A DNA stretch of 41,290 bases from a bacterium (GCA_024278215.1 JAJRTR010000164.1:1-41290); one strand, 5' to 3'. Numbered from the stretch's first letter, positions 2,515 to 26,910 are shown. Program-made: numbers and translations. The notes: generated by a model not told the origin, from the letters alone.

Positions 2515-2554
2515 GGTAACACTTCAGCCATCTTCACTTGGCTAAAGTGTTGCT
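2515..2554 (+). terminator. Intergenic stem-loop (terminator or mRNA-stabilising hairpin)
   Basis: GGTAACACTTCAGCCA-tcttcact-TGGCTAAAGTGTTGCT forms a 16-bp stem with one mismatch and G-U pairs. There is no clear U-tract. Confidence 0.45.
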
Positions 2555-2613
2555 ACTAATCAGAGTTTGGGATATGAACGACAGCATATCCTATGATGAA
2601 AGGAGTGTGAGAA

Positions 2614-3762: not shown

Positions 3763-3777
3763 AGAGGAGGCTCGAAC

Positions 3778-6155: not shown

Positions 6156-6201
6156 AGTTTTTCGAGTTTTTATGTGAATATTTCAAAAAGGAGAATCCGC
6201 T

Positions 6202-6657: not shown

Positions 6658-6771
6658 GACATTGCGGCATAGCCGGTTCTTGCGTTTTTTCGAAACACCT
6701 TTGGAAACTGTCCGGATAATTTGTTGTTTTGCGTTTCAATTTAACTGATCACATTATACAGGAGGTTACAG

Positions 6772-8277: not shown

Positions 8278-8585
8278 CGTGATACCTGTTGTCAAACCGC
8301 AAATATATATAATGTCGTATCAACAAAGAAAAGACGGAAGAACAGATAAGGCCCAGCCTGCAAGTCGAAGTTGCGCCTGAAATTAATCTTTCACACCGGG
8401 GCGCAAGAAAAACCATCGCACGCGCAAGTTTTCACAAGTCACGGCAGTCATTTTCCGGTATTCAGCAATTAATCAACCAGCAGAACTCAACAAAACAGGG
8501 GTTTCCGTTCTGGCACTATATGTACGGTTGCTTGCAATTGATTCACAACTATACAATACTTAATATAAGGCAGATATACTTAAAC

Positions 8586-8640
8586 ATTGCGTTTTCAGGT
8601 AACCCCAGATACCTCCTTATTGCATCTTTAGGTAACCTCA
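8586..8640 (+). promoter_or_regulatory. Pair of 22-bp imperfect direct repeats upstream of the cytidylyltransferase cassette (candidate operator)
   Basis: ATTGCGTTTTCAGGTAACCCCA (8586-8607) vs ATTGCATCTTTAGGTAACCTCA (8619-8640): 18/22 identical with a 33-bp period. Each contains the near-palindrome GGTAACC. Confidence 0.4.
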
Positions 8641-8708
8641 CCCCAATACATGGGCCGAGTGAGGATTGTTTATTTACCGAACACTATATCGGACACTACA
8701 GGAGAAAA

Positions 8709-9575
8709 TTGGTCATATCAAACGAAAACGATTATATCGAAGAACGTGTAACAACAGCCGTACTCCTTGCAGCCGGCACAGGAACACGCCTGCAACCCTT
8801 GACGCTCAATTCACCCAAATGCATGACTATGGTAAATGAAACTTCCATATTAGAGCGATTAATATCCAGCCTGAATCAACATGGTTTCAAACGTCTGGTT
8901 GTGGTCACAGGCCACCTGGAATCCTGTATTCGCAGATATCTGGGGAACCGGGCCGGCAACATGAAGATTGAATATGTTTTCAGTCCACTATATAAGACAA
9001 CCAATAACATATATTCACTATGGATGGCCCGCAAAATTATAAACGAGCCTTTTTTGCTGATTGAAAGTGACCTTGTTTTTGATCCATTTTTATTGTGTAA
9101 CATGCTTTATCCTGACAGAATTGCAGTTGCTCGCGTGCAGCCATGGCTTCACGGTTCAGCAGTTACAATAAATCAGTTCAACATGGTTGATGCATTCCAT
9201 AATGACACTATAAACCTTCCAGGGGAGATAAGATATAAGACTGTCAATATCTACAGCCTTTCCCTCTCTTCGTGGAACAGGGTTGTCGAGACATTAAATA
9301 AGTATGTTCTGGCAGGTGAAGTGAATAGCTATTACGAAGCCGTGTTCGGTCGAATGGTTGCAGAAAAGCGCTTATCATTTCAAGCTGTTTTTTTTGACGG
9401 TAACCCATGGTATGAAATTGACACCTTAGAGGATCTTGCATCAGCGGAAAGGCTGTTCCCTTCGAAATTTTGTGAAGCGATCCCCTTTCAGCATATACAT
9501 ACAGGTAGTTTGATAAACACAAACCTGCATGCCGGTAAAACAACCTGTAATGGAAATAATCATGGTGAATTCTGA
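8709..9575 (+). CDS. Nucleotidyltransferase, LicC/phosphocholine cytidylyltransferase-like
   Basis: AVLLAAGTGTRLQPLT...PKC, YKTTNNIYSLW, LLIESDLVF and WYEIDTLEDL. Probable TTG start at 8709 after AGGAG. Confidence 0.85.
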   Translation: MVISNENDYIEERVTTAVLLAAGTGTRLQPLTLNSPKCMTMVNETSILERLISSLNQHGFKRLVVVTGHLESCIRRYLGNRAGNMKIEYVFSPLYKTTNNIYSLWMARKIINEPFLLIESDLVFDPFLLCNMLYPDRIAVARVQPWLHGSAVTINQFNMVDAFHNDTINLPGEIRYKTVNIYSLSLSSWNRVVETLNKYVLAGEVNSYYEAVFGRMVAEKRLSFQAVFFDGNPWYEIDTLEDLASAERLFPSKFCEAIPFQHIHTGSLINTNLHAGKTTCNGNNHGEF

Positions 9576-10671
9576 TTACAAAACCCAGGCGGATAAGTAT
9601 GAATTCATCGCAGGTCAGCATGGAGGATACTATCGCCATGACTTTATAGACCATGCGTATCTGTATAACCTTTATTTTCCTCCTGAAGAAGTTTTTGATA
9701 TCTTAAAAAACCGAATCCACGACCTTGTTCTTAACTACCCTGTTGCCCAGAACGCCCTTGCCGCTCTTGTGGGTAACCTGATTAATCAACACCCTCAACG
9801 TATTGTTGTCGGTAACGGTGCAGCAGAACTTATCAAAATAGTCTCAGGACATATTGCCCACAGGATTATTGTTCCAGTACCTTCTTTTAATGAATATATA
9901 AACGCAGCACCAAAGGTGCGGGCCATAGAGTTTCTACTTGAATTTCCGTCCTTTCATCTGGATGTAGATAAATTTGCAGCTCAAGCGATTAAAGACAAAG
10001 CAGATGTTGCTGTTGTGGTAACACCGAATAACCCGACCTCCATGGCCATTCCCAAACTCGATCTAATACGCCTGGCAAAAAAACTGGCCAATCATGATTG
10101 TCATCTGATTATTGATGAATCCTTTATCGATTTTGTCGTGGACAGCGCTCAGACAACCATGGAACGTGAAATTGAGCAATATCCGAACATTTCCATTTTC
10201 AAAAGCATGAGTAAGGCATATGGCATCTGTGGTCTTCGCATCGGCTATCTTCTGACGGCAAATTCAGAATTTGCCCAAGCTGTACGTCAAGGAGTTCATA
10301 TCTGGAACATTAACGGATTTGCCGAGGAGTTCTTAAGGATTTTACCCGATTTTAGTGAAGTTTTTATTGAAAGCTGTAACCATGTAAAGGAAGACCGTGA
10401 CAAGCTTTATGAAGACCTGAAGAGTTTTCCGGAAGTAAAGATTTACAAACCTGATGCTAACTTTATTTTTTGCCGTCTGCCTGATTCCGCGCCAAATGGG
10501 CCTGAAATAACAAAGAAATTATTTATTGAGCATAACATTTACATAAAACACTGTCGGGATAAAACTCTTCAGGATTCTGACCGTTACATTCGTATTGCTT
10601 CTCGAACTCAAAGCGAGAATTCCAACCTGTTGGATGCACTGGCGTCTATCCTTGGATATAAAAACAGTTAG
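9562..10671 (+). CDS. PLP-dependent class I/II enzyme (HisC/CobD-like aminotransferase or amino-acid-phosphate decarboxylase)
   Basis: VGNGAAELI, PSFNEY, TPNNPT, IDESFIDF, KSMSKAYGICGLRIGY (PLP lysine) and ANFIF. Start is 9562 or 9529. Confidence 0.9.
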   Translation: MVNSDYKTQADKYEFIAGQHGGYYRHDFIDHAYLYNLYFPPEEVFDILKNRIHDLVLNYPVAQNALAALVGNLINQHPQRIVVGNGAAELIKIVSGHIAHRIIVPVPSFNEYINAAPKVRAIEFLLEFPSFHLDVDKFAAQAIKDKADVAVVVTPNNPTSMAIPKLDLIRLAKKLANHDCHLIIDESFIDFVVDSAQTTMEREIEQYPNISIFKSMSKAYGICGLRIGYLLTANSEFAQAVRQGVHIWNINGFAEEFLRILPDFSEVFIESCNHVKEDRDKLYEDLKSFPEVKIYKPDANFIFCRLPDSAPNGPEITKKLFIEHNIYIKHCRDKTLQDSDRYIRIASRTQSENSNLLDALASILGYKNS

Positions 10672-10681
10672 GGCAGACTTA

Positions 10682-11329
10682 ATGAAAAAGTCACAATATC
10701 CGCAATCACATCAGACAGGAATGCTTTACTTTGCCAGAGATATTCCAAACATCTGTTCCCTTGCCGGGCTTTTATGTGCTGTCCTGGGCATGTACTTTGC
10801 TATTCTGCGAATTTTTCCGGTGGCCATCACAGGAATGCTCTGGGCTGTTGTTTTTGACTGGAGTGATGGAATCATTGCCCGCAAAATAAAGGGCAGAACA
10901 GATGTGCAAAGAACATTCGGCGGACAGCTGGATTCATTGATCGATATGGTAAGCTTCGGAATATGTCCTGCTGTTATTCTTTTAAGCTATGGGGATTTTA
11001 GTCCATGGTTCCTGCCGGGAGCCTTTGTAATTGTCGCCACCAGTGCAATAAGACTGAGCTACTTCAATGTTTTCGGCCTTGTAGATGATTCAACTTATAT
11101 GGGGCTTGCACTTGATAACAATATAATAATTCTTTCTTTTGTTTTTCTATTTGATAGTTTTTTCAGCCACTCGGTTTTTTCGGCCATTCTCTATACAATG
11201 TTCATGGTTCTGGCGGCTTTTAACATAGCTTCTGTTAAAACCCCAAAATTCACCGGAAAATGGTTTTATATTCTCATACTTTATTCAATCACATTAACAA
11301 TTATCTACAGTTGGATACTATGGGGATGA
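10682..11329 (+). CDS. CDP-alcohol phosphatidyltransferase family membrane protein
   Basis: Signature DWSDGIIARK...FGGQLDSLID, IPNICS, RLSYFN and multiple hydrophobic segments. Confidence 0.9.
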   Translation: MKKSQYPQSHQTGMLYFARDIPNICSLAGLLCAVLGMYFAILRIFPVAITGMLWAVVFDWSDGIIARKIKGRTDVQRTFGGQLDSLIDMVSFGICPAVILLSYGDFSPWFLPGAFVIVATSAIRLSYFNVFGLVDDSTYMGLALDNNIIILSFVFLFDSFFSHSVFSAILYTMFMVLAAFNIASVKTPKFTGKWFYILILYSITLTIIYSWILWG

Positions 11330-11759
11330 GCACGACAAATAAGTGTAAACAATACAGTTCCTTGCCTGAATCCGAATACCTGCACGTTTTTGTCATTTTT
11401 CGAAATCCATATCCATATTTTGATCATTCTATCCACCCAATAAACAGGGATTATCACGAATAGAATTGTTTCCCTGATTTCAGAGCAAAATATTTCCCCT
11501 TCTTTCAGAATCCCTAACCCGGAAAACCGGTGCCAAACAGGCCGCATTTTCGTGCCCAAACAAATGCGGTTTGAGCACGGCACACAGAGTTCCATCGTTC
11601 TAAAGGTCTACCTCGGAAACGCCTGTAACTGGAAGCTCCAGCTTTCACCGATCTCTTTTCAGCATTTCTCTACCATCCTGCGTAGCATTTCAGTCGTAAG
11701 ATACAATTGAAAACCGCTATAGAAATCACCGATTGTTCATTTCTTTGATTATGATGATA

Positions 11760-11795
11760 TATCCTTCTGTCTGCGCGACCATGGGCTCGTGCTCC
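11760..11795 (+). repeat. 36-bp direct repeat, left copy (REP-like hairpin or att-like site)
   Basis: TATCCTTCTGTCTGCGCGACCATGGGCTCGTGCTCC is 35/36 identical to 22936-22971. Confidence 0.9.
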
Positions 11796-11898
11796 AGCCG
11801 GGCCGCCCTGCTTTACTCGAAATAATTTCGCCCGGACTCGTAACAAACGTGATTTTGTACATGGCTCTTTTGGGAGATTATAAAAATCATGAAAAGTC

Positions 11899-11926
11899 TT
11901 GATAAAAGGTCAAATAATGTTATACT
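11899..11926 (+). promoter_or_regulatory. Sigma70-type promoter for the giant-protein operon
   Basis: TTGATA, 16-nt spacer, TATACT, with a TGn extended -10 and an AT-rich upstream region. Confidence 0.55.
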
Positions 11927-12129
11927 TAGCGCCAATCAATTCAATTCAAATCATTTCATTCATTTTGATGACGAATGTGTCGGTTCATTTCAGGTGAATA
12001 TACGATGAGGAACGCCATTTTCAGGTATCGTGTACGGTCAGTTGGGAAGATCGTAAAAATACCGATCCGTTGAAGACGGATGTATGTTCTGAAAATCGAC
12101 GACAATCACGGTATACCAGGGAAAAAAAT

Positions 12130-15100
12130 ATGATAAATACAAAGTTGATCAAGGGAATCGTTTTTACGGTGTCATTTTTTTTGTGTGGTCTGTTTGCGGC
12201 TGTGCCTGCCGCGGCGCAGGACACAACGCCACCCTCGTGCGTTGTTGACGAGCTGGCCGATATACAGGGCGAGGCCACTTTCGCGGTGCACTGGGCCGGT
12301 GCCGACGAGTCCGGCGGATCGGGACTGACGGGGCTGTATCGTGTGCAGGTGCAGGACGCTGCCGAGGGTACATGGACCGACTGGCTGGTGAATACGGAAC
12401 AGACTAACGGCAGTTTTGCGGGCCTGGACGGACATACATATTATTTTCAGTGTGCGGCTAAAGATGTCGCAGGCAACTGGACCGCGCTTGCCGCCGATGG
12501 GTTCGGAGACACGGCTACTACGGTCAGGACGGAAAATTTGTCCGTCCAAATTGTTAACGACGGCACGGGCGATGATACCGATTTCACTTCCAGCGCCGAC
12601 ACACTGTCCGGCAACTGGAGCGAGGCATCAGGGGCCGTGGGCTACTCCTATTGCATCGGCACGGCTCCCGGCGAGGCCAATGTTCTGGCATGGACCGATA
12701 CGTCGAGCACTTCCTTCACCGACTCGGGACTCACCCTGGTGCACGGTGTGGTTTACTATATTTCCGTGCGTGCCAAAACCGCCGCGGATTACTATGGCGA
12801 CATATCTGTTTCGGACGGTATCGTTTCAGACCAGACAGCGCCGGACGCGCCATCGGTGGATACGGACGCGCAGATTCAATCCACAAGCATGATCCAGGCC
12901 ACATGGTCAGCCTCCGATCCCGAGTCCGGCATAGTGCGTTACGAAGTGTCCGTGGGCACGACGGCGGGTGGCACCGATGTCGGCGACTGGGCGTCCGCGG
13001 GTTCGGCCACGGTGTATGACATTACGGGATTGAGCCTTACCGTGGGCGGCACATATTTCGTAAATGTGCGTGCTGTCAACGGCGCAGGGGCCGTGAGCGA
13101 CGTGGGATCGTCGTCCGCTGTCGTCGTGGTCGGCACAATACCGGCCGCGCCCGCGTATGTTAACGACGGCACCGGCCAGGACGCGGAGTACACCTCCGAT
13201 ACCACACGGCTGTCGGCCAACTGGAGCGCTGTCGCCGACGCCTCAAGATATGATTATGCCGTCGGGACAACACCGCTGGGCACCGACATCGTGAACTGGA
13301 CGGACGCGGGAGCGGTTACCTCTTACGAAGTATCTTCGCTCACACTTACTTCCGGAACCACGTACTATTTTTCGGTTCGCGCGATCAACGGGTCCACACC
13401 GGGACCGGCCATAACCTCGGACGGTATAACCGCGGACACCTCCGCGCCCAGCACACCGATTGTCGAAACCCCCGAATTGCTGATAAGCAATACCACACAG
13501 TTGCAGGCTTCGTGGAACGCGGAGGAACCTGAATCCGAAATCACACTTTATGAATATGCCGTGGGAACATCTCCCACGAGTCAGGATGCCCTGGGTTGGA
13601 CCGGCACCGGCACCAGCGTCTCCGTCGTCATCAACAATATAGACATGCAAGTGGGTAAGACCTATTTTATCCAGGTGCGGGCCACAAACGGCGCGGGTCT
13701 TGTCAGCAACACAGGTGTGTCCGATGCAGTCGTTGTCACACACAACGCAGACATTACCACTACTTTCAGCCCTTCCGAAGTCACTACCGTTCAGACCGAT
13801 GCCGGGAACGCCGACTCTATTATTACAATATATTTCAACGAAAGCAGTGGCGTTGGTGTGGACTATCATCAGCTACAGATGCTTTATGTACTCGACAACG
13901 GCACCGAGTTCGAAGACCAGGTACGAATGATCACCGGTACGGGGCAGCCCGATCCCATCCAGGTGGGCGGAGACGCCGGTATGTCCATCGACGCCGGAAT
14001 ATCCATCACCCCGGGCGGGGCTGAATCGTATCGTTTCGCAGTGGTGATTCCCGAATACATTGTAACCCATGCGGTGGGCGGACGTGCCGATGCTTCTTTG
14101 ACAATGCGTTTCATCTTCACCGGTACGGACGAAAGCAAGCAGGAAGTGACAACAATTACGAACGTGCCTCTGGTTCTTTCTTCACATGCCGCCGCCGCTT
14201 CAGACCTGCACGTGGACGAAGTATCCATCACATCGCCCACCGCCGGCATGAATATCACGAACCCCGTTGCTTTTGCCGCCGCCGCCACCGTCAAAACCAC
14301 GGGCAGCGGAGACATCAAGGGCTACTGGGAACTCGACGGACGGCCCTACCACGAATTCAGGGAACACGCCTCCGCGGGAAGCGACATGACATTGAGTGTA
14401 AAGCTGCCCGAGTCGCTGGGGGGCCGCCACACGCTTATTCTGAAGATCATCATGCCGGAAGTTATGGAATCCGCACCGGTCGTCTTTACTGTAACCGACG
14501 TAATCAAGGGGGCCGTATTTACGGACTTCTGGGCCGGGGACCTTCACTTCACCGATGTGCGCGCAATCTTCGATGGAGACCTCAAGGCTTACAGCGGGTC
14601 CGCAAAACTGGAATACGGAGTGATCAGGCTCGAAACACCTGTTCCTTTCAGCAACCTGACAATCGAAGAACGAAACGGACGCTATGAGCTTACAGGCGGT
14701 GCCCTCAAGACAGAGATCGATTTCAGAGAAGTTCATGATGCACTCAGCATCTATGTGGACCGGCTGGCTGTGACCACGAGCGGAGCGAAGGTGGACGGGC
14801 GTGTGCATTTCGAAGGAGCCGATGGGGTGCCGGGCATAGGGCCGCTGCATTTCTACGGTGTTGACATTACATCCGACGGCATTACAGGCTCGGTAACATT
14901 CCCTGAAAAGCAACAGGGCACCATCGGCATTTTCAACATCGCCATCAACTCCGTACATTTTTCATACACTTCCGGCGGGCTGACGCTGGACGCCTCTGCC
15001 GTGCTCACACTGGGCGACGAGGGAACAGCGGGCGGTTCACTGGATTGCGTATTCAGCGTTTCCAGTTCCGGTTCGGCTGTTTTCCGGGTCGGCGAGCAGG

Positions 15101-18100
15101 CATACGAAAAAGCAGGTATCACCGACACACAATCCGGGCTCGGCAACGATCTGGTACTGGCTGGATTCACGTACCATGTAACCTATGGCGAACTCAGCGA
15201 AAAAGACGGCGCACTGGCTCTCGACGCCACCGGCGGCGCACTGGACGCGGCAGCGGCTCTCGGACCCGGAGTCAAGCTGAATATCGGCTCCTTACGTATG
15301 ATCGACACGGGCTCGATCACGCTGTCGGACATATCGTCGCCCGAATTCAGTTTCGGCTCCTTCTCGGCAAAAGCCACAGCACGTGAAATCACGCTTTCTC
15401 TGGGTGAGATCCCGGACCTTGTTCTGGACATGGAGATCACAGCGCCGATGGGCGGCGGGAAGCTCGTGTTGACCGCAGAAAATGTCCCTGTTGGCAAAGA
15501 AGGCATCCGTGATGCGGACATCACCGTCAAACCCGCCGGAGGCAGCGATCATGTGGCGGAACTCCGCTTGCTCGACTGGGCGGACCTGAAGGTAAGTAGC
15601 GCAATCATACACGTCAAGGACCGCAAACCCACAGGTATGGTTCTGACGGCAGGGCTGTCTTTCGACGGCAAAGGTTTCGAATCTGAAAATATTACCTGGG
15701 AAAACAACGACTGGAGCGGTACGCTGCACGCCGTGGGCGATCCGTCATTCGAGCTTGCAGGCGCGAAAATGGAGTTCCCGGCGGGCAGTGAGATAGACCT
15801 TACCATGAAAGGCGAGGGCAATGACGGACACAGCGTCGCCGTAATATTCAAAAACACTTCATTCGACTTTTCCGGACTGATAGGCAAGCCTTTCAAGTTC
15901 ACCGTGGACGAGTTGTCTGTAACCGACGGTGCAGTCGCCGCGGACGTCAGCGTGCATGACACCGTTACGCTGGCCGACCTGTCGCTTGCTATCAACAAGT
16001 TGCATATCGACAGCCCCAGACCCGCCACGGGCGGTAAACGGACAATCGACGCACTGCTCGGAGGCACACTTATTCTGAACGCCGGGCGTAAAATAAAAAT
16101 CGGATTCAACAATATGAAGATGTCGAGCACCGGTGAGATCGGTGGCGATATTTCTCCGGGTTACGACACGGAGTTCAACATGTTCGGGGCCTCGTTCCGG
16201 ATCAAAAAGATACATCTTGACAAACCGGCGGACGGCGAACTCCGGTTCACTATGGACGGCTCTATAGGATTCCTGAATTCACGCGTGGACTTTACGGGCA
16301 TGACATACAGGAAAGGCAAACTGAACGTACACGCCGAAGTGTCGGGAAACGCACCGCTGCGAATGCCCGGCCTGCATTTCATAGGCTTCACAAAGCTTGA
16401 CGTAGTGGACAACAAACTGGAGGCCGACGGATTTTTCGAACTGCCCGCGCCCATCAACAAGCGTGTTCCGCTGGAAAACCTCGCCATCGACACATCCGGC
16501 GGGCTGCCCGACAGAATTGAGATCGACAATCTTTCTTTCAACGTGGACGACTTCACGTTCAAAGTCTCGAAGGCGAGTTTCGAGTTTAAAACCAAGGCAC
16601 TGACACTCGATGGGAATATTGCATTGCCTGACGGATATTTCGACCAGATGATACCGTTCCGGAATGTGAGCCTGACAATGCCCGAGGGCGATTCAGGGCG
16701 TCCCGCGCAGGCGGATATGTCAAAGGCAAGCACGACGGCCACGGAGATAAAGGACACAAGGCACAACCTCCCGCTCCAGATCAGCAAGTTTTCCATCGGC
16801 ATCGATCCTGCTCACAACAGCAAGTGGTTCGTGAATCTGTCGGGCAAGCTCAGTATGGAACTCGACGGCCAGAGTTTTTACCTGGACTTCCTGAATTATA
16901 AAATATACTCGGACATGAGCATGAGCATGGGCAGAGTATCAGGCGGATTGAAGATCGGCGGGTTCGACGTAAATGTAGACGACCTCGATATCGTGGACAA
17001 CGTGAGCGATCCATACACTCAGATAACCGGTGGCATGTCCATGGAATCGCTCGGCACCGTTGCGGTCAAGGACCTGCGCATACACAGGTCGGGAGCCGTG
17101 GAACTGGCCGGAGTGCATCTTGACATGGACTACAACGCCTACAAATATGACGTGAACATCAGCTATATCGACAAGACATTCAAGGGCAGCGGCAGGATCA
17201 CGTTTGAAAACGAGGAACTCGACGTGTCCGCTATATTCGGTCCTTCCGAATGGATGCTGGACATAGAGGCAAGCGGCCTCGACATCGAACTGTTCCCGGG
17301 CGTGACCCTGGTAAAGGTCGGCGGCGGCGTGCATTACTGGAAAAACAGCAATTTGCTGAAATTCAAAATCGACTGCGGACTTGCTCTCCCCGAAAAAGAT
17401 GTGCTGTACGGAGACGTCGAACTTGACGTGGCCACCAATGGGATCATCGGCATCAATGGGAATCTCATCATGTTCGACTCCCTGCCGGTCAAGGAGGCCT
17501 ACATCCATATCGATATTCCACACGCTACCCTGGCCGGCACAATTGTGCTGAATAAAACAATTGGAGGCGTCGCGAATGCCGATGTGACGCTCGATGTTTT
17601 GTTTTCGCCGAACAACTGGTATCTCAGCGGCAATGGCAACGCAAACATACTGGGAAGTCTCAGTATCAATCCAGTGAGCTTCCGGCTTGACAGCAACGGT
17701 TTCCGCGCAAGCGGCCACAGCAATATCAATGTTGTAATTATGACTGCGGGATTTGATTTTAACCTTGACATAACCACCGGAGGCAGCGTGAGCGGCTCAT
17801 TCGCCGGTCACGTGGGTGCCACGATTCTTGGCATTGTACACGTTTCAGGCGACCTGGAGGTAGCCTATATCAACGGCGCGTTCGACGGCCATGTCGGGCT
17901 GAGCGGCTGCCTCGACGTCTGCATGCCCGGCTGCTCCTGGCACTGGGTAAACCACTGCTGCTGCGGTTTCAATTATCCCTGCGGCTGCTCATGGCACTGG
18001 TGGGGCATTTCCTGTGGTTCATGCCACACGCAAATATGTGTTCCCCTGTACCAGCCCTATAATTGCAGTTGGTGTTACAGTAAAATCCATAAATGCGCCA

Positions 18101-18153
18101 GCATCAATGTTTACCTGCGGATCGACAGCGGCGGCATTCACGCCCATCTATAA
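12130..18153 (+). CDS. Giant secreted protein (~2007 aa): signal peptide, ~5 FN3-like domains, Ig-like domains, long beta-rich repeat region, C-terminal 14-Cys hairpin
   Basis: Signal peptide MINTKLIKG...AVPAAA/QD. FN3-like repeats (W...D.ESGI..Y...VGT..G...W; G.TY...VRA.NGAG). Recurring G.(L/I).(L/F)....F.(N/D)(L/M).I...G units. ATG 12130 follows AGGGA. Confidence 0.85.
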   Translation: MINTKLIKGIVFTVSFFLCGLFAAVPAAAQDTTPPSCVVDELADIQGEATFAVHWAGADESGGSGLTGLYRVQVQDAAEGTWTDWLVNTEQTNGSFAGLDGHTYYFQCAAKDVAGNWTALAADGFGDTATTVRTENLSVQIVNDGTGDDTDFTSSADTLSGNWSEASGAVGYSYCIGTAPGEANVLAWTDTSSTSFTDSGLTLVHGVVYYISVRAKTAADYYGDISVSDGIVSDQTAPDAPSVDTDAQIQSTSMIQATWSASDPESGIVRYEVSVGTTAGGTDVGDWASAGSATVYDITGLSLTVGGTYFVNVRAVNGAGAVSDVGSSSAVVVVGTIPAAPAYVNDGTGQDAEYTSDTTRLSANWSAVADASRYDYAVGTTPLGTDIVNWTDAGAVTSYEVSSLTLTSGTTYYFSVRAINGSTPGPAITSDGITADTSAPSTPIVETPELLISNTTQLQASWNAEEPESEITLYEYAVGTSPTSQDALGWTGTGTSVSVVINNIDMQVGKTYFIQVRATNGAGLVSNTGVSDAVVVTHNADITTTFSPSEVTTVQTDAGNADSIITIYFNESSGVGVDYHQLQMLYVLDNGTEFEDQVRMITGTGQPDPIQVGGDAGMSIDAGISITPGGAESYRFAVVIPEYIVTHAVGGRADASLTMRFIFTGTDESKQEVTTITNVPLVLSSHAAAASDLHVDEVSITSPTAGMNITNPVAFAAAATVKTTGSGDIKGYWELDGRPYHEFREHASAGSDMTLSVKLPESLGGRHTLILKIIMPEVMESAPVVFTVTDVIKGAVFTDFWAGDLHFTDVRAIFDGDLKAYSGSAKLEYGVIRLETPVPFSNLTIEERNGRYELTGGALKTEIDFREVHDALSIYVDRLAVTTSGAKVDGRVHFEGADGVPGIGPLHFYGVDITSDGITGSVTFPEKQQGTIGIFNIAINSVHFSYTSGGLTLDASAVLTLGDEGTAGGSLDCVFSVSSSGSAVFRVGEQAYEKAGITDTQSGLGNDLVLAGFTYHVTYGELSEKDGALALDATGGALDAAAALGPGVKLNIGSLRMIDTGSITLSDISSPEFSFGSFSAKATAREITLSLGEIPDLVLDMEITAPMGGGKLVLTAENVPVGKEGIRDADITVKPAGGSDHVAELRLLDWADLKVSSAIIHVKDRKPTGMVLTAGLSFDGKGFESENITWENNDWSGTLHAVGDPSFELAGAKMEFPAGSEIDLTMKGEGNDGHSVAVIFKNTSFDFSGLIGKPFKFTVDELSVTDGAVAADVSVHDTVTLADLSLAINKLHIDSPRPATGGKRTIDALLGGTLILNAGRKIKIGFNNMKMSSTGEIGGDISPGYDTEFNMFGASFRIKKIHLDKPADGELRFTMDGSIGFLNSRVDFTGMTYRKGKLNVHAEVSGNAPLRMPGLHFIGFTKLDVVDNKLEADGFFELPAPINKRVPLENLAIDTSGGLPDRIEIDNLSFNVDDFTFKVSKASFEFKTKALTLDGNIALPDGYFDQMIPFRNVSLTMPEGDSGRPAQADMSKASTTATEIKDTRHNLPLQISKFSIGIDPAHNSKWFVNLSGKLSMELDGQSFYLDFLNYKIYSDMSMSMGRVSGGLKIGGFDVNVDDLDIVDNVSDPYTQITGGMSMESLGTVAVKDLRIHRSGAVELAGVHLDMDYNAYKYDVNISYIDKTFKGSGRITFENEELDVSAIFGPSEWMLDIEASGLDIELFPGVTLVKVGGGVHYWKNSNLLKFKIDCGLALPEKDVLYGDVELDVATNGIIGINGNLIMFDSLPVKEAYIHIDIPHATLAGTIVLNKTIGGVANADVTLDVLFSPNNWYLSGNGNANILGSLSINPVSFRLDSNGFRASGHSNINVVIMTAGFDFNLDITTGGSVSGSFAGHVGATILGIVHVSGDLEVAYINGAFDGHVGLSGCLDVCMPGCSWHWVNHCCCGFNYPCGCSWHWWGISCGSCHTQICVPLYQPYNCSWCYSKIHKCASINVYLRIDSGGIHAHL

Positions 18154-18175
18154 GCGGGACTTTCGGAGGACATAA

Positions 18176-20491
18176 ATGAAACGAATCGTTTTATACATTA
18201 TTGCAGTACTTGTATTCCTGTGCGGAATTTCCGATGCACAAACAAAAGACATCACCGAACCCGCGTCCCACGCACTGGCTACGGATTCCGCCGTGTACAT
18301 GTTCGTTAATGTATTGCCGATGGACGGAGTGGCGGGCTTCATGGTGTACCGCGCAGACGAACCCATCGCCGCACTCAACCGCGAGCACGGCGCCTTCTCT
18401 GAAAAATCATCTTCAGACCTGAAAACCGGTCTGGATTCCGCGCACCGCCAGATCCTCGACAAAATACTCGAGGGCAAAACCCTGGACGAACTGCAAAAGG
18501 AAATCGAAGAACTCGAGAAAACTGACCCACAGGCTGCCGAAAAACGCAAACAGGAAATAAAGGCCGCTATCGAACAGAATATCAGGGATTACGAAACCGC
18601 TTCCGAAAAACTGCAACACGACAGCAAGAACGCACTGGACCAGCACCATGAGGATTATAAGAATAAGGTGGAAAACGCCATCGAGAACGGTCCGGCCCCG
18701 GAGGACTTCAAACTGCTCACGGACACACCCGTGACACCCTTCACCGACGATCAGAAAATCATGGACGAACTCAACCTCGTCGACCTCGATTCACTTAAGG
18801 CGATGGGGCTGCAGTCCGCTTCGGAACTGGTGACGAAATATGACGAACACAAGGGCAATATCAACCTGCTCCTCCTGCACTCCCTGCCTGTAAACAGAAT
18901 CATGGGCCGCGTATACGAAGACACCACCGTGACGCCCGGCAACGGGTACGTTTACCGCGTGGACCTTGTAGATGATAAAGGCAATGTGGTGCGCAGCCTG
19001 CCCCCGATCACCGTCATCGCACAACCCAATCCACCGGCCACTCCTACAGGGTTCATAGCCGAGGCGAAATCGGATCATGTCGAACTGCGCTGGGACAAAC
19101 CCTCTAACATTCCTACCGGCTGGATCATTCTGCGCTCGGATTCTTCCCGCGATGCAGAGTTCACAAAGATCAATCCCGGCGTTATTTCAAGCATCGGTAA
19201 GTCCATATTCAAAGATTATTCGGTCAAACCCGGCATGAAACTCAGTTACAAACTTTTCGCCGTGGACACTGTGGGCAACCGTAGCATACCCGCGGAATCA
19301 CCGTCTTTCACCTTCGTGGACATCGTTCCACCGGCTCCACCCACAGGCGTAAAAGCCGTTTTGAAAAACGGTCGCATCTCCCTGACCTGGCCCCGAAGCA
19401 GGGAAACAGACCTGGCCGGCTACAATGTCTACCGCAGTAATACTCCGGATGGAGACTTCAAGTTGCTCACCGACACATCGCTGGCCGCAGACGCCGTCGA
19501 ACACATATCGGATGTGAATGTACCCGGCACTGTCCATTACTATCGCATAACCGCTCTGGACACTACAGGCAACGAAAGTGCGCCTTCACATTTAGCATGG
19601 GTCGTACCCCCGGACACTCTGGGGCCGGATTCCATCTCCGATCTCTCGGTGGAACAATCGGGGCCGGACTCCGTGACTCTGACATGGACCTGCAACGAAC
19701 CGAAGGACATGCACGGGTATCACATTTATCGCGGCTACTCGAAGGACAGCCTGAAAAAGATACACACATCCGTCATCCCCAAAGGAACATATTCCTATGA
19801 GGACAGCAACCTGCGTCCGGGCGAAACTTACTACTATGCGGTCGCGGGTGTCGACATCAATATGAACGAAGGCGCTCTTTCCGGTATCGTCGAGGTCGTC
19901 GCTCCCGACAGTGAAGCCCCCCTGCATCCCGCCAACATCGCCGCCGCGCCCGGCGACGGGATGGTCACGTTGTCGTGGCCCGCGAACCACGAACCGGATG
20001 TGGCCGCATACCACCTGTATCGCTCAAACGGGGAAAACAGCCCCTTTTCCAGAATCTTTATTTCCGACGCTGCAACTACGCAATATGTGGACAAAGATGT
20101 GGAGAACGGACTGGAATATATGTACTTCATCAAGGCCGTGGACAGTGCGGGCAACGAAAGCGCACAATCGCATACGGCATACGCAACCCCGCGTGACACC
20201 GCGGCACCGGCAGCCCCACGAGACACGAACGTCGAGGTGTCTGCCGCAGGCGTCACAATCTCATGGAAAGCGCCGAATGAACACGACATCGTGGGATACC
20301 TTGTGCTGCGCGCACAAGCGGAAACCGCCGTATATGAAACCATTACCGATCAGCCCGTAACCAACAACAGCTACACCGACACAACCGCCGCGGGAGAATG
20401 CTGGTACAAGATAGTAGCCGTTGATACATCGGGAAACAGAAGCCCGCGAAGCAACGCCGCGGGACCGGTCATACTCAGGGCCGGTAAGTAA
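18176..20491 (+). CDS. Secreted fibronectin type III repeat protein with an N-terminal helical insert
   Basis: Signal peptide. Repeats P.PP..V....V.L.W....E.D..GY.(V/I)YR...Y.D.....Y.Y...AVD..GNES. A charged helical stretch (ELQKEIEELEK...KRKQEIKAAIEQ) interrupts the first domain. GGAGG RBS. Confidence 0.9.
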   Translation: MKRIVLYIIAVLVFLCGISDAQTKDITEPASHALATDSAVYMFVNVLPMDGVAGFMVYRADEPIAALNREHGAFSEKSSSDLKTGLDSAHRQILDKILEGKTLDELQKEIEELEKTDPQAAEKRKQEIKAAIEQNIRDYETASEKLQHDSKNALDQHHEDYKNKVENAIENGPAPEDFKLLTDTPVTPFTDDQKIMDELNLVDLDSLKAMGLQSASELVTKYDEHKGNINLLLLHSLPVNRIMGRVYEDTTVTPGNGYVYRVDLVDDKGNVVRSLPPITVIAQPNPPATPTGFIAEAKSDHVELRWDKPSNIPTGWIILRSDSSRDAEFTKINPGVISSIGKSIFKDYSVKPGMKLSYKLFAVDTVGNRSIPAESPSFTFVDIVPPAPPTGVKAVLKNGRISLTWPRSRETDLAGYNVYRSNTPDGDFKLLTDTSLAADAVEHISDVNVPGTVHYYRITALDTTGNESAPSHLAWVVPPDTLGPDSISDLSVEQSGPDSVTLTWTCNEPKDMHGYHIYRGYSKDSLKKIHTSVIPKGTYSYEDSNLRPGETYYYAVAGVDINMNEGALSGIVEVVAPDSEAPLHPANIAAAPGDGMVTLSWPANHEPDVAAYHLYRSNGENSPFSRIFISDAATTQYVDKDVENGLEYMYFIKAVDSAGNESAQSHTAYATPRDTAAPAAPRDTNVEVSAAGVTISWKAPNEHDIVGYLVLRAQAETAVYETITDQPVTNNSYTDTTAAGECWYKIVAVDTSGNRSPRSNAAGPVILRAGK

Positions 20492-20517
20492 ATGAAATAT
20501 GTTAAAGGATATATCTT

Positions 20518-22539
20518 ATGAGCAAAGCTGTTTTCAAATACTTGTTGCCGTTCGCACTTGCCGTGGCACTCTTCAGCAACCCCGCCCATGCACTCAAGTT
20601 TCACCTGAGCGAACCTTCCAGTCACCCGGATAAAATCGATGTAACCACAAATCCGCCCGTCACTTCCGGGACAACAGCGGGCGTGAACCCGGCCAACGTA
20701 GGAGCCGCAGGCTCCGTACCGGCAAGCGACACCGGCACAGGCAACACTACCGCGCCAAGGGGCCGCGCACTCGGCGACGGCAAATACAACGGAATCTTTT
20801 CCGCATGGCAGCCCCTCGACAACACGCTGCCACTCAAATCCGCCCAAATCGAGCTCGGTGTCATCTCGCACAGACAGCACCGACAGATGCGCAACATTCT
20901 GTCACGCAGCGTTTTCACCGGCAACTATTATCTCGAAGGCGTCGAGTCAAATACGATTATCGACAAGCTCGGCTGGAAAACGCAACTGCACCGTCAGCTT
21001 AAAGGGAAACCCGTCACAAACTCACTGATTTCAATAAACGGTGAACAGAGCGGACTTACATTCAAATACGACGAAAAGGAAAAACTCACCAGTCTGGCCG
21101 CACCGAAAACCGGGGGAAACCACACGCGCAACCGCACGCTCTCCGTCGACTACAAACACTCAGACGCTCTCACTTTCAAACTCAAAAGCGACTCCCGGCT
21201 TCATCACACCATGGGCGGCACCCCCACAAATACCACCTCGGAAAAGTACGACTGGAGCGCGGGATACCTGTTCGCCGAAAACTCGCAGCTGCTATTGACA
21301 CACACCGACAACACAAGCCGCAACCGCATAAACAATAAAACTTCGCGCAACATCGGCACAGGCGTCACTCTGACCATGCCGCTGGCAGGCATTTTCGGGG
21401 TGCGCCTGGGCTATAAACACAACGACAACTTTCTAAACTCCAGCGGCACGGGCACCAGCCACAACTCACGCACCGCCTCCCTTGCCGTCATCTGCCAACT
21501 GCAAGAAGATTCGCAACTCACCTGGACCATCAGTCACTCCAACCTGAAAAGCATGTCCGGCACGTCCACCCTGGACTACGATGTCGCAGGTCAGGAAATC
21601 AATCTGCATTACGTCTTATCCAAAGCCCTGACACTAAATACAAAAAATATTCTCAAAGACGACGACGCAAACGGCAAATACACTCACAATCAGGCCGTGC
21701 TCGTTCTGGACCACTCGCATTTCCGCATTCTACCGGGGAAAACCACATTCACCACGAAAAAAACCATCAACCGCGCAGGCAGCGGCGCTCACAAGACAGT
21801 GGCCGAAAACAACACGATCAACCTGCCTCTTTCCTACCTCAACGGACGACTCAAGGCCAGGGCTCAACTCAACTTCAGCCGCAACAGCAGACTCAGCGCG
21901 GTCTCCAGCAACGATACATCGGCCAATAACCACAACTACAGGGTCACTTACAACATCCTGCGAAACCTGAAAGCTAAACTGGAAGCAAAAAGCATGGAAC
22001 AGACCGCATTCTCCGGTGACGGGCTTGCCTCGATGAAATCCAACAACGTCTATTCCGAAAAACTTTCCTACGAACTCAAAACGCCACTCGCAGGCATACC
22101 AGCCGTCACAGCCTTCAAATACGACCTCAAAACCAGCAGGTCGCGCAACAGAACCTTTGCCCCACGCAACGCTTTCAGCATCTCCAAAATAACATCGAAT
22201 ATCGGCACATTATCATTCGCCGACGGCAACTACTCCGGCTCCTACCAGTTCGAACACTCGAACTCGCGCCAACCCCACGGCATTGCTTTCCGCGCACTGA
22301 AACACAGACTTAAAATCAACATCGCCGATTTCGTCGGCTTCAAACTCACCTCGGATTACACGGCTGTGTTCCAGACAAAAGGCTTTTCCAACAACGGTAT
22401 TCTCAAACTATCCCAGGTGCTGGACAACAACAATGTCTTCTCCCTCGCCTGGGAGTTCAGTCGCAACCAGGACAAAAACAACTTAACGGGAAACAGGAAA
22501 AGCGAGTATCTGGAAGCCACGATGGAATTGAACTTCTGA
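20518..22539 (+). CDS. Putative large outer-membrane beta-barrel protein
   Basis: Signal peptide (PAHA/LK) and a Pro/Thr/Gly linker. Many alternating amphipathic strands with N/S/T-rich loops (LSVDYK, WSAGYLF, VRLGYKH, INLHYVL, YRVTYNI, FSLAWEF). C-terminal EYLEATMELNF resembles a BAM beta-signal. Confidence 0.75.
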   Translation: MSKAVFKYLLPFALAVALFSNPAHALKFHLSEPSSHPDKIDVTTNPPVTSGTTAGVNPANVGAAGSVPASDTGTGNTTAPRGRALGDGKYNGIFSAWQPLDNTLPLKSAQIELGVISHRQHRQMRNILSRSVFTGNYYLEGVESNTIIDKLGWKTQLHRQLKGKPVTNSLISINGEQSGLTFKYDEKEKLTSLAAPKTGGNHTRNRTLSVDYKHSDALTFKLKSDSRLHHTMGGTPTNTTSEKYDWSAGYLFAENSQLLLTHTDNTSRNRINNKTSRNIGTGVTLTMPLAGIFGVRLGYKHNDNFLNSSGTGTSHNSRTASLAVICQLQEDSQLTWTISHSNLKSMSGTSTLDYDVAGQEINLHYVLSKALTLNTKNILKDDDANGKYTHNQAVLVLDHSHFRILPGKTTFTTKKTINRAGSGAHKTVAENNTINLPLSYLNGRLKARAQLNFSRNSRLSAVSSNDTSANNHNYRVTYNILRNLKAKLEAKSMEQTAFSGDGLASMKSNNVYSEKLSYELKTPLAGIPAVTAFKYDLKTSRSRNRTFAPRNAFSISKITSNIGTLSFADGNYSGSYQFEHSNSRQPHGIAFRALKHRLKINIADFVGFKLTSDYTAVFQTKGFSNNGILKLSQVLDNNNVFSLAWEFSRNQDKNNLTGNRKSEYLEATMELNF

Positions 22540-22602: not shown

Positions 22603-22935
22603 ACATGTCATAGTCCCCGGGCCGGACAGTTCATTATAAAGTGGCTGGGAGAAAACCCCCGAAAAACGCGATTGCTCATAGGCAGCGGGATGAGCGACCA
22701 GCCTGGGTTCGGGGTGAAGATGGAATCCGCTCTGTTTTCATGCTCTTTTCTCGACTGCGCCGTGATGAGATATGCCGGCGCATTCCGCGTTGTTTTTCTA
22801 TTCAATTTTTAAAACATCTATAATCGGCAGGCGCTTTTGATCTTGTTCTTTTTCCGCGTCTCGTTGTATTTCCTGATGCGCCGCCTGCGTTTGTTTTCTT
22901 TTTTGAAGAATAGCGAGCCGAGTGTGTGAGTAATG

Positions 22936-22971
22936 TATCCTTCTGTCTGCGCGACCAGGGGCTCGTGCTCC
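22936..22971 (+). repeat. 36-bp direct repeat, right copy
   Basis: TATCCTTCTGTCTGCGCGACCAGGGGCTCGTGCTCC has one mismatch to 11760-11795. Confidence 0.9.
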
Positions 22972-23083
22972 TGTCAACAGGTAGCAAATTGCCGACGTAA
23001 ACAAAACTATTCCGAGCCAATAAACTATTCTCAAATTTTATAATACACGTACTGCCCCTTACACTTCCGCTATGTGCATAATT

Positions 23084-23127
23084 CTAGGTCTGACACCAAT
23101 ACATGCTAGGTCTGACACCAATACATG
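23084..23127 (+). repeat. Perfect 22-bp tandem duplication
   Basis: CTAGGTCTGACACCAATACATG x2, followed by degenerate TGACCCGCCAAT and CTGACCCCAAT units up to about 23151. Confidence 0.9.
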
Positions 23128-23224: not shown

Positions 23225-23857
23225 TTATCTAATTGCATCAGCTTTATTTTGCTTTTTAATTTTAAGATATAATCTTCTCAGATACTCTTCAGAAAAGTAA
23301 GGTAATTCTTTGACTTTAATTACGCAAATATCCTCAGGATTCTTACCATGTAAGCAAAAAACAAAATTAAGAAAGAGATTCGTTTTTTTTGAATCAGAGA
23401 AAGTATAGTTTATCTTATAAGCATCATTGTATAGAGAGAAATCTATATCCTCACCAAAGTATTCTTTCAACTCTTTCACAAAATTATGCCAATAAACCGC
23501 ATTTTCCACAACTTCCCATTGAACACCATTAATTGTTTTAAATGGAGGAGTTACACCATATTCCTTATAAATTACAAATTTTTTCTTTTGAAGTTTTTTC
23601 TTAAACACACGTAATTCTTCCTTTGTCGGCATATAGCTGGTAAAATAATCCTTGCATATTATTAGTTGGCCATTTCTAATTTCAGTCGCGAAATTAACAT
23701 CTTTGACATTTTTAACAACATAAGGTACTTCCTTAATTATTTCAAAATTAGCGTCATTTTTATTCCCAATCGCAACATATGATTTATTATTACATGACAT
23801 TGTAGAAATAATAATAAAAACAAGCATGACATTAATCATATTTATGTTAAATTTCAC
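23225..23857 (-). CDS. AT-rich putative lipoprotein of unknown function (immunity-protein-like context)
   Basis: AGGAGG RBS 7 nt before GTG at 23857. Hydrophobic leader ends in ISTMS-C (lipobox-like). Much more AT-rich than the neighbouring genes. Confidence 0.7.
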   Translation of the reverse strand: MKFNINMINVMLVFIIISTMSCNNKSYVAIGNKNDANFEIIKEVPYVVKNVKDVNFATEIRNGQLIICKDYFTSYMPTKEELRVFKKKLQKKKFVIYKEYGVTPPFKTINGVQWEVVENAVYWHNFVKELKEYFGEDIDFSLYNDAYKINYTFSDSKKTNLFLNFVFCLHGKNPEDICVIKVKELPYFSEEYLRRLYLKIKKQNKADAIR

Positions 23858-23918
23858 AAACAAGCCTCCTATTCATGTTTTTAAATTACATAAAGAAGTT
23901 GTAAATATCATGGCTCGA

Positions 23919-24068
23919 TCAAAAATCAAATGCTCCATCCGGATGAAACCCTGTTGGCCAATTTGCAACATCGTTTCCACATTCTGGTTGTCCATAATAC
24001 TTATCTTTGAAATTATTATTATAATCTTCTACACATGCAGATCTACAGTCTAATCCATTATTGTGAGA
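23919..24068 (-). pseudogene. Orphan C-terminal gene fragment upstream of the lipoprotein
   Basis: Start-less AT-rich frame SHNNGLDCRSACVEDYNNNFKDKYYGQPECGNDVANWPTGFHPDGAFDF*, ending about 60 nt before the lipoprotein start. Confidence 0.4.
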
Positions 24069-24178
24069 AAAAACAAGATGGTCAGGAATCGCATGAGAGA
24101 AGCGCTCTTTTTGCGCTTCTCGACGAAAAGTTTTGAAAGAGTGTGAAAAACTTCTTAAGAAGTTTTCTCACATATATT

Positions 24179-24212
24179 GATGCCCCGTCCGCTTGCTCCG
24201 GGGAGCTTCATT
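24179..24212 (-). repeat. REP/IS200-IS605-end-like palindrome, copy 2
   Basis: Minus strand AATGAAGCTCCCCGGAGCAAGCGGACGGGGCATC has the same architecture and orientation as 22571-22602. Confidence 0.6.
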
Positions 24213-24226
24213 TGTGACAAACATGG

Positions 24227-25045
24227 TTATTCTACATCGTACATCTGTTTCATGTAGTGGAGTTCGGTGATGTTGGAGATTTGTATCATGCGGTCCATTT
24301 TGTCTGGAGAGAACTGATAGTAGGTCTCGCGGACGCGGTCGATGACGCCCATGCCGAACGAGATAGCGCCGATGTCGTCTGTGTGCTGTGGGGGCCGTCC
24401 GAGCTTCTGAAGTTTGTCGTCCTTATCAATCAAGGCCTGGCGAACATCGTGTAATATCTCGCGCGTCGAGTCCACAAGATGCTTGTTTTCTCCGGCTTTC
24501 ATTACTGTGTGCGCGAATCCGATCATGCGTCGTCCTTCAGTCTGTGAAACTGTAATATAGGCCTGTCGATAGTCCTCGAAATTGACAACGAGCGTGTCGT
24601 CGATTTTTGTGTCCCGTGATTCATAGGTTTTCATGAGTCCCGCGACAAGTTTATTCTCGAGCCTTTTCGATAGTGTATAAGCGACAATTGTGCTGAGTCC
24701 TATTTTCATTGCAGACGGGAAGATTGATACGTGCTTCATCATTATTCGCGGGATGGAGGGGATAATAAAGGCGAGTTTATGCGGACGCTTCAGCATTTTT
24801 ATCATCGACTCGAAGCTCTTATCCAGTTCGCCGCGATCTTCCACCTTAGGATAAACATTGCTCGTGAAAAGGTCTTCCATTTCGTCGATGTCGTCCTGTG
24901 AAATATCATCGAGCAGATTGTTATCCCTGATTTCAGCTATCGCCTCGAGGTATTCTATTCTATAGCGCTTATGGATTTCGGCATGAAGAAACTCGACTGC
25001 CTTTTTCCTTAATATTGCTTGTTCCCTGCTTTCTACCTGTGCCAA
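24227..25045 (-). CDS. Hypothetical alpha-helical protein
   Basis: Long ORF. Probable TTG start at 25045 after GAAAGG, although the ORF extends to 25147. LFTSNVYP...R..LD..F loosely recalls FFLEELY-motif proteins (unverified). Confidence 0.7.
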   Translation of the reverse strand: MAQVESREQAILRKKAVEFLHAEIHKRYRIEYLEAIAEIRDNNLLDDISQDDIDEMEDLFTSNVYPKVEDRGELDKSFESMIKMLKRPHKLAFIIPSIPRIMMKHVSIFPSAMKIGLSTIVAYTLSKRLENKLVAGLMKTYESRDTKIDDTLVVNFEDYRQAYITVSQTEGRRMIGFAHTVMKAGENKHLVDSTREILHDVRQALIDKDDKLQKLGRPPQHTDDIGAISFGMGVIDRVRETYYQFSPDKMDRMIQISNITELHYMKQMYDVE

Positions 25046-25391
25046 TATGCAGCCTTTCCGTATTATTGATTCCCTGATGTCAACCGAATCCGAATATACA
25101 ACTGCGCGCATAATAGCTGATGCCGGTTCGAGTGTCAAACACAGCATTCAATGCGAAAGGGCGAGTTGTTACATGATTTGTGTTAAACCCAATACTGTGC
25201 AACCGACTGTAGCGGAGGCAGAATTTTGCAATCGGCTCTGCATACATAGTTGCTGAACGAAACCCCTAAAAGGCCTGTCAATAAAGGAAGAATTCAGGCA
25301 CTTAACTCATCCATTTAACAGCAGGCGAATATAGTACTACAATATTCTACAATCTTTTTAGCGAACCAGTAATGTGGAGGAACAGGAATAT

Positions 25392-26783: not shown

Positions 26784-26910
26784 TATTCACACCGGGCTTT
26801 AACTTTTCAGCGTGTTTGTGATATTATTGATTTTGGGTTATGAAGCAAGTGCGGTGCCGACAATAAGGTTGACAGGACACTATCCACCCTGAAAAAAAGA
26901 GGAGTAAGAT

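Follow-up and report, generated by a model that had tools for sequence, protein, structure and literature searches.

A three-gene locus for a giant protein, an FN3 rod and a barrel

The sequence analysed here (the window) is a 41,290-nucleotide (nt) stretch of DNA from an uncultured bacterium (GCA_024278215.1, JAJRTR010000164.1:1-41290) that corresponds to contig C140 of a 4.55-Mb, 207-contig assembly estimated to be 95% complete. Its plus strand carries three consecutive genes that encode a giant protein, an array of FN3 domains and a predicted outer-membrane barrel, and this trio is our subject. The giant gene (12130..18153) encodes 2007 amino acids (aa) from its ATG; the frame is open from a TTG at 12070, and the ATG at 12130 is the first with an AGGGA-type ribosome-binding site. 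The FN3-rod gene (18176..20491, 771 aa) and the barrel gene (20518..22539, 673 aa, with a C-terminal Phe) follow on the same strand after gaps of 22 and 26 nt, each of which contains a Shine-Dalgarno-like GGAGG or AAGGA. Listing of open reading frames (ORFs) and translation confirm the three linked, co-oriented genes of an initial annotation that was made from the sequence alone. The genes are real rather than chance ORFs, because homologues keep their order in other genomes. Read by eye, the N-terminus of each product is basic, then hydrophobic, and then has an AxA-like site, in keeping with the Sec-type signal peptides proposed in that annotation.

The trio had also been placed behind a single promoter. 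A sigma-70-like match does occur upstream (11899..11926, plus strand; TTGATA-16-TATACT, 10/12, with TG), but it is a consensus match only, and the scan returned 14 such sites against 8.5 ± 2.9 in shuffled sequence. Similarly, a terminator-like hairpin followed by a T run (22776..22792, plus strand) lies 237 nt past the barrel stop codon and is a consensus match only, one of 21 such sites against 14.0 ± 3.7 in shuffles.

A predicted large barrel without a plug domain

The 673-aa protein consists of a signal peptide, a peptide at residues ~26-50 that is kept across the family, a low-complexity linker to residue ~91 and a run of ~30 beta strands that ends with the terminal Phe. An AlphaFold model built on a six-sequence alignment has a mean pLDDT of 75.6 and 30 DSSP strands over residues 106-672. 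Residues 1-91 are disordered in the model and a plug domain is absent. The conserved peptide, ~25 residues long, directly follows the signal peptide. At the C-terminus, five of the six aligned sequences of the family have an aromatic residue. AlphaFold, Foldseek and VIA all point to a large barrel, a test that the initial annotation had named beforehand.

The best match of the model in the PDB is MtrB, both with Foldseek (6r2q_B, E 4.6e-10, TM-scores 0.43/0.45) and with VIA (Z 15.4 over 435 aligned residues), where TonB-dependent barrels come next at Z ~13.9. Because this lead is only ~1.5 Z, we take the match as likeness of fold class and not as proof of kinship. SlpA of Deinococcus also appears in the Foldseek list, at rank 30 (E 1.7e-5). 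At the sequence level, Pfam and NCBIfam scans of the protein returned zero families, and a Pfam search of 18 barrel-family members at E ≤ 1 returned zero outer-membrane or secretion families, POTRA/Omp85 and MtrB/PioB included. Searching PDB sequences with the barrel profile gave just OmpF, at E 0.25. The nearest leads in the ESM Atlas, at 0.95, are unnamed clusters of Eiseniibacteriota and Cloacimonadota, along with a Fervidibacterota entry, also at 0.95, that is automatically named ‘putative Cell surface protein SprA’.

The FN3-rod protein

The second protein is composed of a signal peptide and seven FN3 domains (Pfam fn3, E 4.3e-16). Domain 1 is interrupted by a conserved helical segment and has a GRVYED-type motif at its end. 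The window protein has in addition a coiled insert of ~110 aa (residues ~61-176) that is window-specific. A PapD_C match is sub-threshold (E 0.064, 14 bits against a cut-off of 22.8).

Full-length orthologues are 27-37% identical, and by sequence comparison the rod is the best conserved of the three components. Its profile matches proteins in 97 of 401 genomes at E ≤ 1e-25, mostly as partial matches to FN3 repeats elsewhere. Near-full-length matches (ORFs of 682-771 aa) are found at ten loci in nine of the 401 genomes: G000, G001 (two loci), G006, G008, G010, G070, G179, G167 and G321. The set includes just 13 genomes of the window’s phylum; G070 is the sole genome of its phylum, and G179 and the pair G167/G321 are related to the window genome at the level of ‘same domain’. 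Counting the window phylum, G070, G179 and the G167/G321 pair, the rod family therefore spans four phylum-level lineages. Proteins of ~690 aa with partial FN3-rod matches in G161, G357 and G287 were set aside: they have no giant or barrel neighbours and are not the module.

A fused giant protein with a variable Cys-rich insert

The giant protein begins with a signal peptide and five FN3-like domains (residues ~30-560), followed by a segment that we call the M module (~575-900) and by the core of a second, the T module (~900-2007). Pfam detects just FN3/Ig-type domains (fn3, E 6.8e-13), and NCBIfam detects zero families at E ≤ 0.1. In BLAST comparisons, window residues 31-960 align with the C-terminal part of giants that relatives encode upstream (37-39% identity), and residues ~900-2005 align with a separate ~1430-aa protein of those relatives (30-32% identity), which is the T module on its own. 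The T profile matches window positions 13888 to 18147. The alignments thus identify the window giant as a lineage-specific fusion of an FN3-array giant and a T protein that are separate in relatives. The same fused form is present in P0004, a 2005-aa relative from another data set that is 75% identical. The ‘giant passenger’ of the initial annotation is therefore a real gene, but its product is a fusion of two proteins. That an FN3 giant and a T protein encoded separately elsewhere are joined here argues that both act in one assembly.

The M module (13852..14826, plus strand) was delimited by homology to the C-terminal ~400 aa of the relatives’ upstream giants and to stand-alone proteins of 406 aa in G010 and 469 aa in G005. 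Window residues 575-981 match the G010 protein at 29% identity (E 6e-51), and residues 523-946 match the G005 protein. The M module is also distantly paralogous to the region at the N-terminus of the T module, with T-profile positions 134-400 matching the C-terminal ends of upstream giants at E 2e-7 to 5e-12, and the fusion junction falls within these paralogous segments.

The T-module core (14827..18150, plus strand; ~1100 aa) is an antiparallel beta meander according to alignments and an AlphaFold model. Its strands are amphipathic, with face means of 1.74 and -1.01. Foldseek places ApoB100 and LptD at the top (E 2.5e-6 to 1e-4), at TM-scores of just 0.06-0.16, so these matches reflect shared strand arrangement alone. 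VIA returns partial porin-like or single-sheet matches that are near background (Z ≤ 10), with PapC and FimD at Z 8.6-9.9 and lipovitellin at Z 8.0. Pfam searches of six T-module members at E ≤ 1 found no outer-membrane or secretion family, and specifically none of the AsmA/TamB/DUF490 or LptD (OstA) families; the FN3/Ig domains of one fused member were the only detections. The ESM Atlas likewise offered no useful lead for the T module. We considered whether the last ~220 aa of the meander form an autotransporter-type barrel and rejected this, as the porin-like matches at Z ≤ 10 are background. The extreme C-terminus, with a conserved motif of the type Cys ... VYLRID..G.HA, was likewise rejected as an outer-membrane protein signal: this conserved end is not a typical aromatic-terminal signal.

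The T-module matches suggest an alternative in which the trio forms a bridge or tether across the envelope. The T module would carry lipids or other hydrophobic molecules or line their path, in the manner of AsmA/TamB, LptD or ApoB, or it would tether the outer membrane, with the barrel as a port and the rod as a periplasmic spacer. One strongly hydrophobic strand face is what such a role would predict, although a beta-sandwich core would give one equally. Matches to ApoB100, LptD and lipovitellin point the same way, against which stand the very low TM-scores of the first two and the weakness of the T model itself. The length of the rod, which we estimate to be similar to the width of the periplasm, and a TPR protein that recurs at three loci (G005, G070 and G179) would also fit. 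However, the AsmA, TamB and LptD families are undetected. The inner-membrane anchor expected of AsmA-like proteins is missing from the T module, which in the window is preceded by five FN3 domains and a cleavable signal peptide. We regard a bridge as improbable.

Near the C-terminus of the giant is a Cys/Trp/His-rich segment (17908..18096, plus strand) of 63 aa (residues 1927-1989) with 14 Cys and one CxxCH. About 57 aa of this segment are an insertion between the last T-module strands, just before the terminal motif. Three ~1430-aa orthologues have no insert at this site, and the window protein and P0004 have the 57-aa insert. At the same C-terminal site, the G070 giant has an unrelated Cys-rich insert of ~600 aa. 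The initial annotation had raised the idea that the C-terminus of the giant differs between lineages, and this proved to be the case. Variation at this site fits its suggestion of a ‘functional tip’. The G070 insert (giant residues ~1500-2100) is rich in Cys, Trp and Tyr and apparently helical.

The CxxCH, with MtrB as the best structural match of the barrel, raises the question of whether the trio could serve extracellular electron transfer as a porin-cytochrome-like conduit in which the barrel is an MtrB analogue. Like MtrCAB (6r2q), the trio comprises a large plug-less barrel of long strands encoded beside partner proteins, and the idea of an elongated partner that fills the barrel lumen is taken from the MtrB sheath around MtrA. 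There the likeness ends. The two systems have no sequence relationship, the barrel model has ~30 strands and MtrB has 26, no MtrB/PioB match occurs among the 18 barrel-family members, and the partners are an FN3 rod and a giant beta protein, not multihaem proteins, of which the operon encodes none. The CxxCH is the only one in the 3,451 residues of the three proteins. Although kept in P0004, it is a single motif among 14 Cys and lies in a lineage-specific insert absent from the other orthologues. Electron transfer is thus a most improbable function.

Gene order and distribution

At all ten rod loci a protein of at least 1,287 aa is encoded on the same strand upstream of the rod, immediately so in nine and with two genes between in G179. 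Directly 3' of the rod, a barrel-like gene is found in seven (the window, G008, G010, G006, G179, G167 and G321). The gene order of the window is matched in G008, G006 and G010, which belong to the same taxonomic order and where an FN3 giant (1600-2000 aa) is followed by a ~1430-aa T protein with its own signal peptide, a ~700-aa rod, a ~720-aa barrel and another giant. In G070 the order is T-giant, rod, TPR protein, one opposite-strand gene and then barrel. Of the two G001 loci, one (contig C30) is cut off where the contig stops 143 nt after the rod gene, and in the other (C121) the rod is adjoined by a convergent 1423-aa protein that ends in Phe and is weakly similar to P0026. The families of the trio therefore co-occur in other genomes and in other phylum-level lineages, a pattern that the initial annotation had proposed surveying.

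Might the three genes be chance neighbours that share no function, one for an ordinary porin-like protein and two for unrelated surface proteins? The linkage is broken in G001 and altered in G005, as such a situation would allow. Against it, the window, G008, G006 and G010 share the order giant/T, rod, barrel at protein identities of just 23-39%, and G070 and G179 have this order with extra genes. Furthermore, the 22- and 26-nt gaps of the window and the overlapping stop and start codons at the G179, G167 and G321 loci indicate co-translation units. We consider chance proximity very unlikely.

The barrel family is strongly represented in seven of the 401 genomes (the window genome, G001, G005, G006, G008, G010 and G070) and the T profile in six. 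Among the 388 genomes of other phyla, the barrel and T profiles found G070 only, plus weak T matches in G179 and G282. The G179 barrel is weakly related to the family (hhalign 64%, E 6e-5; BLAST E 7e-10 to P0025, a distant member from G001), and the G179 giant is similar in its N-terminal part to the end of the T module (hhalign 79.5%, E 1.5e-5), with LFPG...GGG..Y and the terminal motifs in common. The barrel-like proteins of G167 and G321 have just a sub-threshold OMP_b-brl match. In these comparisons, homology of the partner proteins fades faster than that of the rod.

Searched against 1.84 billion representative proteins, the barrel profile matched 23 at E ≤ 1e-3, 18 of them at E ≤ 1e-30. 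A pattern scan derived from the T alignment recovered three already-known contigs among genome contigs and the G008 contig only among metagenome contigs. In word-indexed protein searches the barrel matched itself alone and the T region matched P0004 alone; these searches say little about rarity, because they missed orthologues that were seen in whole-genome searches.

Two loci show further arrangements. On the minus strand of contig C108 of G179 (490-14870), in a phylum other than that of the window, a five-gene operon with overlapping stop and start codons encodes, in order, a giant whose N-terminal part is T-like (at least 1927 aa), a 997-aa protein, a 602-aa TPR protein, the rod and a 576-aa barrel. 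The 997-aa protein has PKD/CarboxypepD_reg domains and a type IX secretion system (T9SS) sorting domain, and it links the module to T9SS-type cargo in that lineage. On contig C14 of G001, from position 16654, P0025 (779 aa) is followed after 37 nt by an FN3/cadherin-rich ORF that is still open at the contig end after more than 4,470 aa. This pairing echoes the theme of a barrel plus a giant.

Comparison with known secretion and envelope systems

The initial annotation had recognised no POTRA/TpsB, autotransporter, RTX, T9SS C-terminal or sortase signature in the trio. Pfam and NCBIfam agree: the POTRA/Omp85, autotransporter, RTX, T9SS C-terminal-domain (CTD) and sortase families have no match in the three proteins. 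The trio lies outside every secretion and envelope class tested, lacking their defining features. Scans that included family members mapped it onto no described system, and a narrow literature search found no account of such a module.

One conceptual parallel is two-partner secretion (TpsB/TpsA, as in FhaC/FHA), in which a Sec-exported giant beta-rich protein is likewise paired with a dedicated outer-membrane barrel. Transferred to the trio, this would make the barrel a translocation pore through which the giant, and perhaps the rod, is released as a soluble adhesin or toxin carrier. The gene linkage is what one would expect both for secretion of this kind and for the display reading that we favour below, the combination of a Sec signal and a dedicated barrel is that of type Vb systems, and a variable insert near the C-terminus recalls polymorphic C-termini. 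However, the trio has no POTRA, Omp85 or TPS domains (POTRA/Omp85 in 0 of 18 barrel members, and no TPS domain in the giant), the barrel model has ~30 strands and not 16, making it about double the size, and the FN3 rod adds a third conserved component. Toxin and immunity domains were not detected, and what varies is a stretch of 57 to ~600 aa inserted internally between conserved strands, not a replaceable C-terminal domain. Release by a two-partner-like route consequently appears unlikely. Autotransporters of types Va and Ve differ further, as here the barrel is a separate gene and no autotransporter or intimin beta-domain family was detected.

SprB of Flavobacterium is a giant FN3/Ig-rich surface protein, exported by the T9SS, with its own outer-membrane barrel, SprF, that holds it there. 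The trio shares with this pair a giant FN3-rich protein encoded with its own barrel. In contrast to SprF/PorP, the barrel here is far larger, and the giant and the rod have no Por_Secre_tail or other CTD family. Models for T9SS core components find little in the window’s genome: the best SprA match scores 34.9 bits against a cut-off of 200 and the best GldK match 90.5 against 350. The GldM model has no match in this genome, but none in the control genomes either. Two marginal Por_Secre_tail matches occur elsewhere in the genome.

In terms of size, the barrels of more than 26 strands named in the part of the source drawn on here (10.64898/2026.03.07.710327) are just SlpA of Deinococcus (30) and SprA (36). 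The barrel model has a comparable strand count. Unlike SlpA, to which it is not similar in sequence, the window barrel lacks an SLH or coiled-coil tether domain. Chaperone-usher systems differ in that no usher family was found in the trio, the PapD_C match of the rod being sub-threshold. The giant proteins of Omnitrophota are linked, in the portion of the report considered here, to type II-like loci and not to barrels (10.1101/2023.11.21.568195).

One resemblance suggested by the initial annotation did not survive. Two segments, FWAGD...VPFSNLTI in the giant and the GRVYED-type end of the first FN3 domain, had been likened to proteins of TANFOR loci of Bacteroidota. Both motifs are present (giant residues 800-845 and FN3-protein residues 244-262), but among the proteins collected the former occurs only in the window protein and P0004. 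As far as the main text of PMC7073777 goes, TANFOR (TIGR02542) is a ~147-aa N-terminal domain of polymorphic toxins of Bacteroidetes, which are defined by a C-terminal toxin domain and an adjacent immunity gene; its neighbourhoods are enriched in Fn3, PKD, SprB and T9SS-CTD domains, and that main text mentions a barrel zero times. TIGR02542 has 0 matches at E ≤ 1 over the whole assembly and none in the giant in the NCBIfam scan. Pfam detected no toxin or immunity domain in the giant, and the genes 3' of it are those for the rod and the barrel. We reject a TANFOR relationship.

A candidate surface-display module

Our favoured reading is that the trio is a dedicated surface-display module of barrel, rod and giant protein, with a variable Cys-rich tip near the C-terminus of the giant. 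We judge this about equally likely to be right or wrong. The analysis establishes the genes, their conserved co-occurrence, the fold of the barrel, the fusion and the variable insertion site, and it shows that the trio belongs to none of the families tested. Arrays of FN3/Ig domains, like Cys-rich knots, are characteristic of surface proteins outside the cytoplasm.

On this reading, all three proteins would cross the inner membrane by Sec, and the barrel would be placed in the outer membrane by BAM (a BamA/Omp85 gene in the window’s genome scores 145 bits), where it may serve as a dedicated port or anchor. By analogy with MtrA, which fills MtrB, and LptE, which plugs LptD, a plug-less barrel of ~30 strands probably needs a filler or gate. 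The rod suggests itself as an adaptor or stalk, because it adjoins the barrel in most loci, has a specialised first domain and has a fixed length of seven domains. If extended, it would reach ~25 nm and could link the barrel to the T module, which is encoded upstream of the rod and is covalently joined to the FN3 array in the window lineage. The T module and the attached FN3 array would then extend from the cell surface as a long appendage, most probably with an adhesive role. In relatives, the separate FN3 giants may dock on the T module through their M modules. Specificity would be set by an exposed tip, formed by the variable Cys-rich knot close to the C-terminus.

Several results weigh against this interpretation. 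Surface location, export via the barrel, contacts between the proteins and an adhesive role are what we infer from the pattern of genes and folds. The AlphaFold model of the T module is weak (pLDDT 59.5, pTM 0.35), consists entirely of strands, and has no fold match above background in Foldseek or VIA. The strands of the barrel are long and rather polar, with a better-face mean of 0.26 on the Kyte-Doolittle scale, and strand count and closure rest on DSSP assignments for a model made from 6 sequences. Linkage is also imperfect. The family barrel of G001 is encoded on another contig, where its neighbours are divergent and unrelated. That of G005 has a TPR-like protein on one side and an M-module protein on the other, and the T protein was not found in this genome, which is 83% complete. 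In G167 and G321 the rod alone is demonstrably homologous, with hhalign values of 7.7% for the barrel-like protein and 8.1% for the G167 giant.

The display reading can be extended to an undescribed outer-membrane machine, in which a ~30-strand sheath barrel is threaded or capped by the seven-FN3 rod. The rod would hold the amphipathic giant independently of type V and type IX systems, FN3 giants would dock via M modules, and the rod would be the universal marker of the machine in at least four phylum-level lineages. We think this bolder version doubtful, if possible. We rate the module as lying outside known kinds, with a putative function.

To our knowledge, just a handful of routes bring giant proteins to the surface of diderm bacteria (secretion types I, V and IX, ushers and Slam). 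If the proposal is correct, the trio of barrel, rod and giant would represent a new way of building surface appendages, and a function could be suggested for unannotated giant genes in several uncultured phyla. The three-gene set is compact (10.4 kb) and open to synthesis and testing in a model diderm, and the natural fusion and the variable insertion site point to the parts that interact and to the part that is likely exposed.

Genomic surroundings

The operon has a G+C content of 53-57%, against 41% in both flanks. A 39-nt direct repeat is present to its left (11757..11795) and right (22933..22971), with 37 of 39 positions identical; the likeness stops at 39 nt, and these two copies are the only ones in the 4.55-Mb assembly. 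The repeats are 11,176 nt apart and bracket the operon exactly, at the jump in G+C from 41% to ~55%. They could be the boundaries of an island that was inserted here, or a regulatory or hairpin element that has been duplicated. The DNA between them encodes no integrase. Just beyond, in an AT-rich spacer 3' of the operon (23081-23124), a 22-nt unit occurs in two tandem copies that are identical at 21 of 22 positions.

On the upstream side, the promoter region of the operon is adjoined by a three-gene set of 41-43% G+C (8520-11329) for a nucleotidyltransferase, a class I/II aminotransferase and a CDP-alcohol phosphatidyltransferase, which looks like a cassette for head-group or envelope-lipid modification. 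Farther upstream (2614-6657) are genes for two thiolase-like proteins, an SCP2/ChsH2 zinc-ribbon protein and an OB-fold ChsH2-C protein. These adjoin genes for an acyl-CoA dehydrogenase and an Fe-alcohol dehydrogenase, and the cluster looks like a side-chain or beta-oxidation-type pathway. Downstream of the operon, two orphan ORFs of 212 and 306 aa lie on the minus strand (23225-25147), followed at 25374-27654 by genes for a 469-aa protein, which has a signal peptide and matches no Pfam family, and a 247-aa FecR-domain protein. An AddA/AddB-type helicase-nuclease pair of 1237 and 1180 aa is encoded on the minus strand at 27750-34992.

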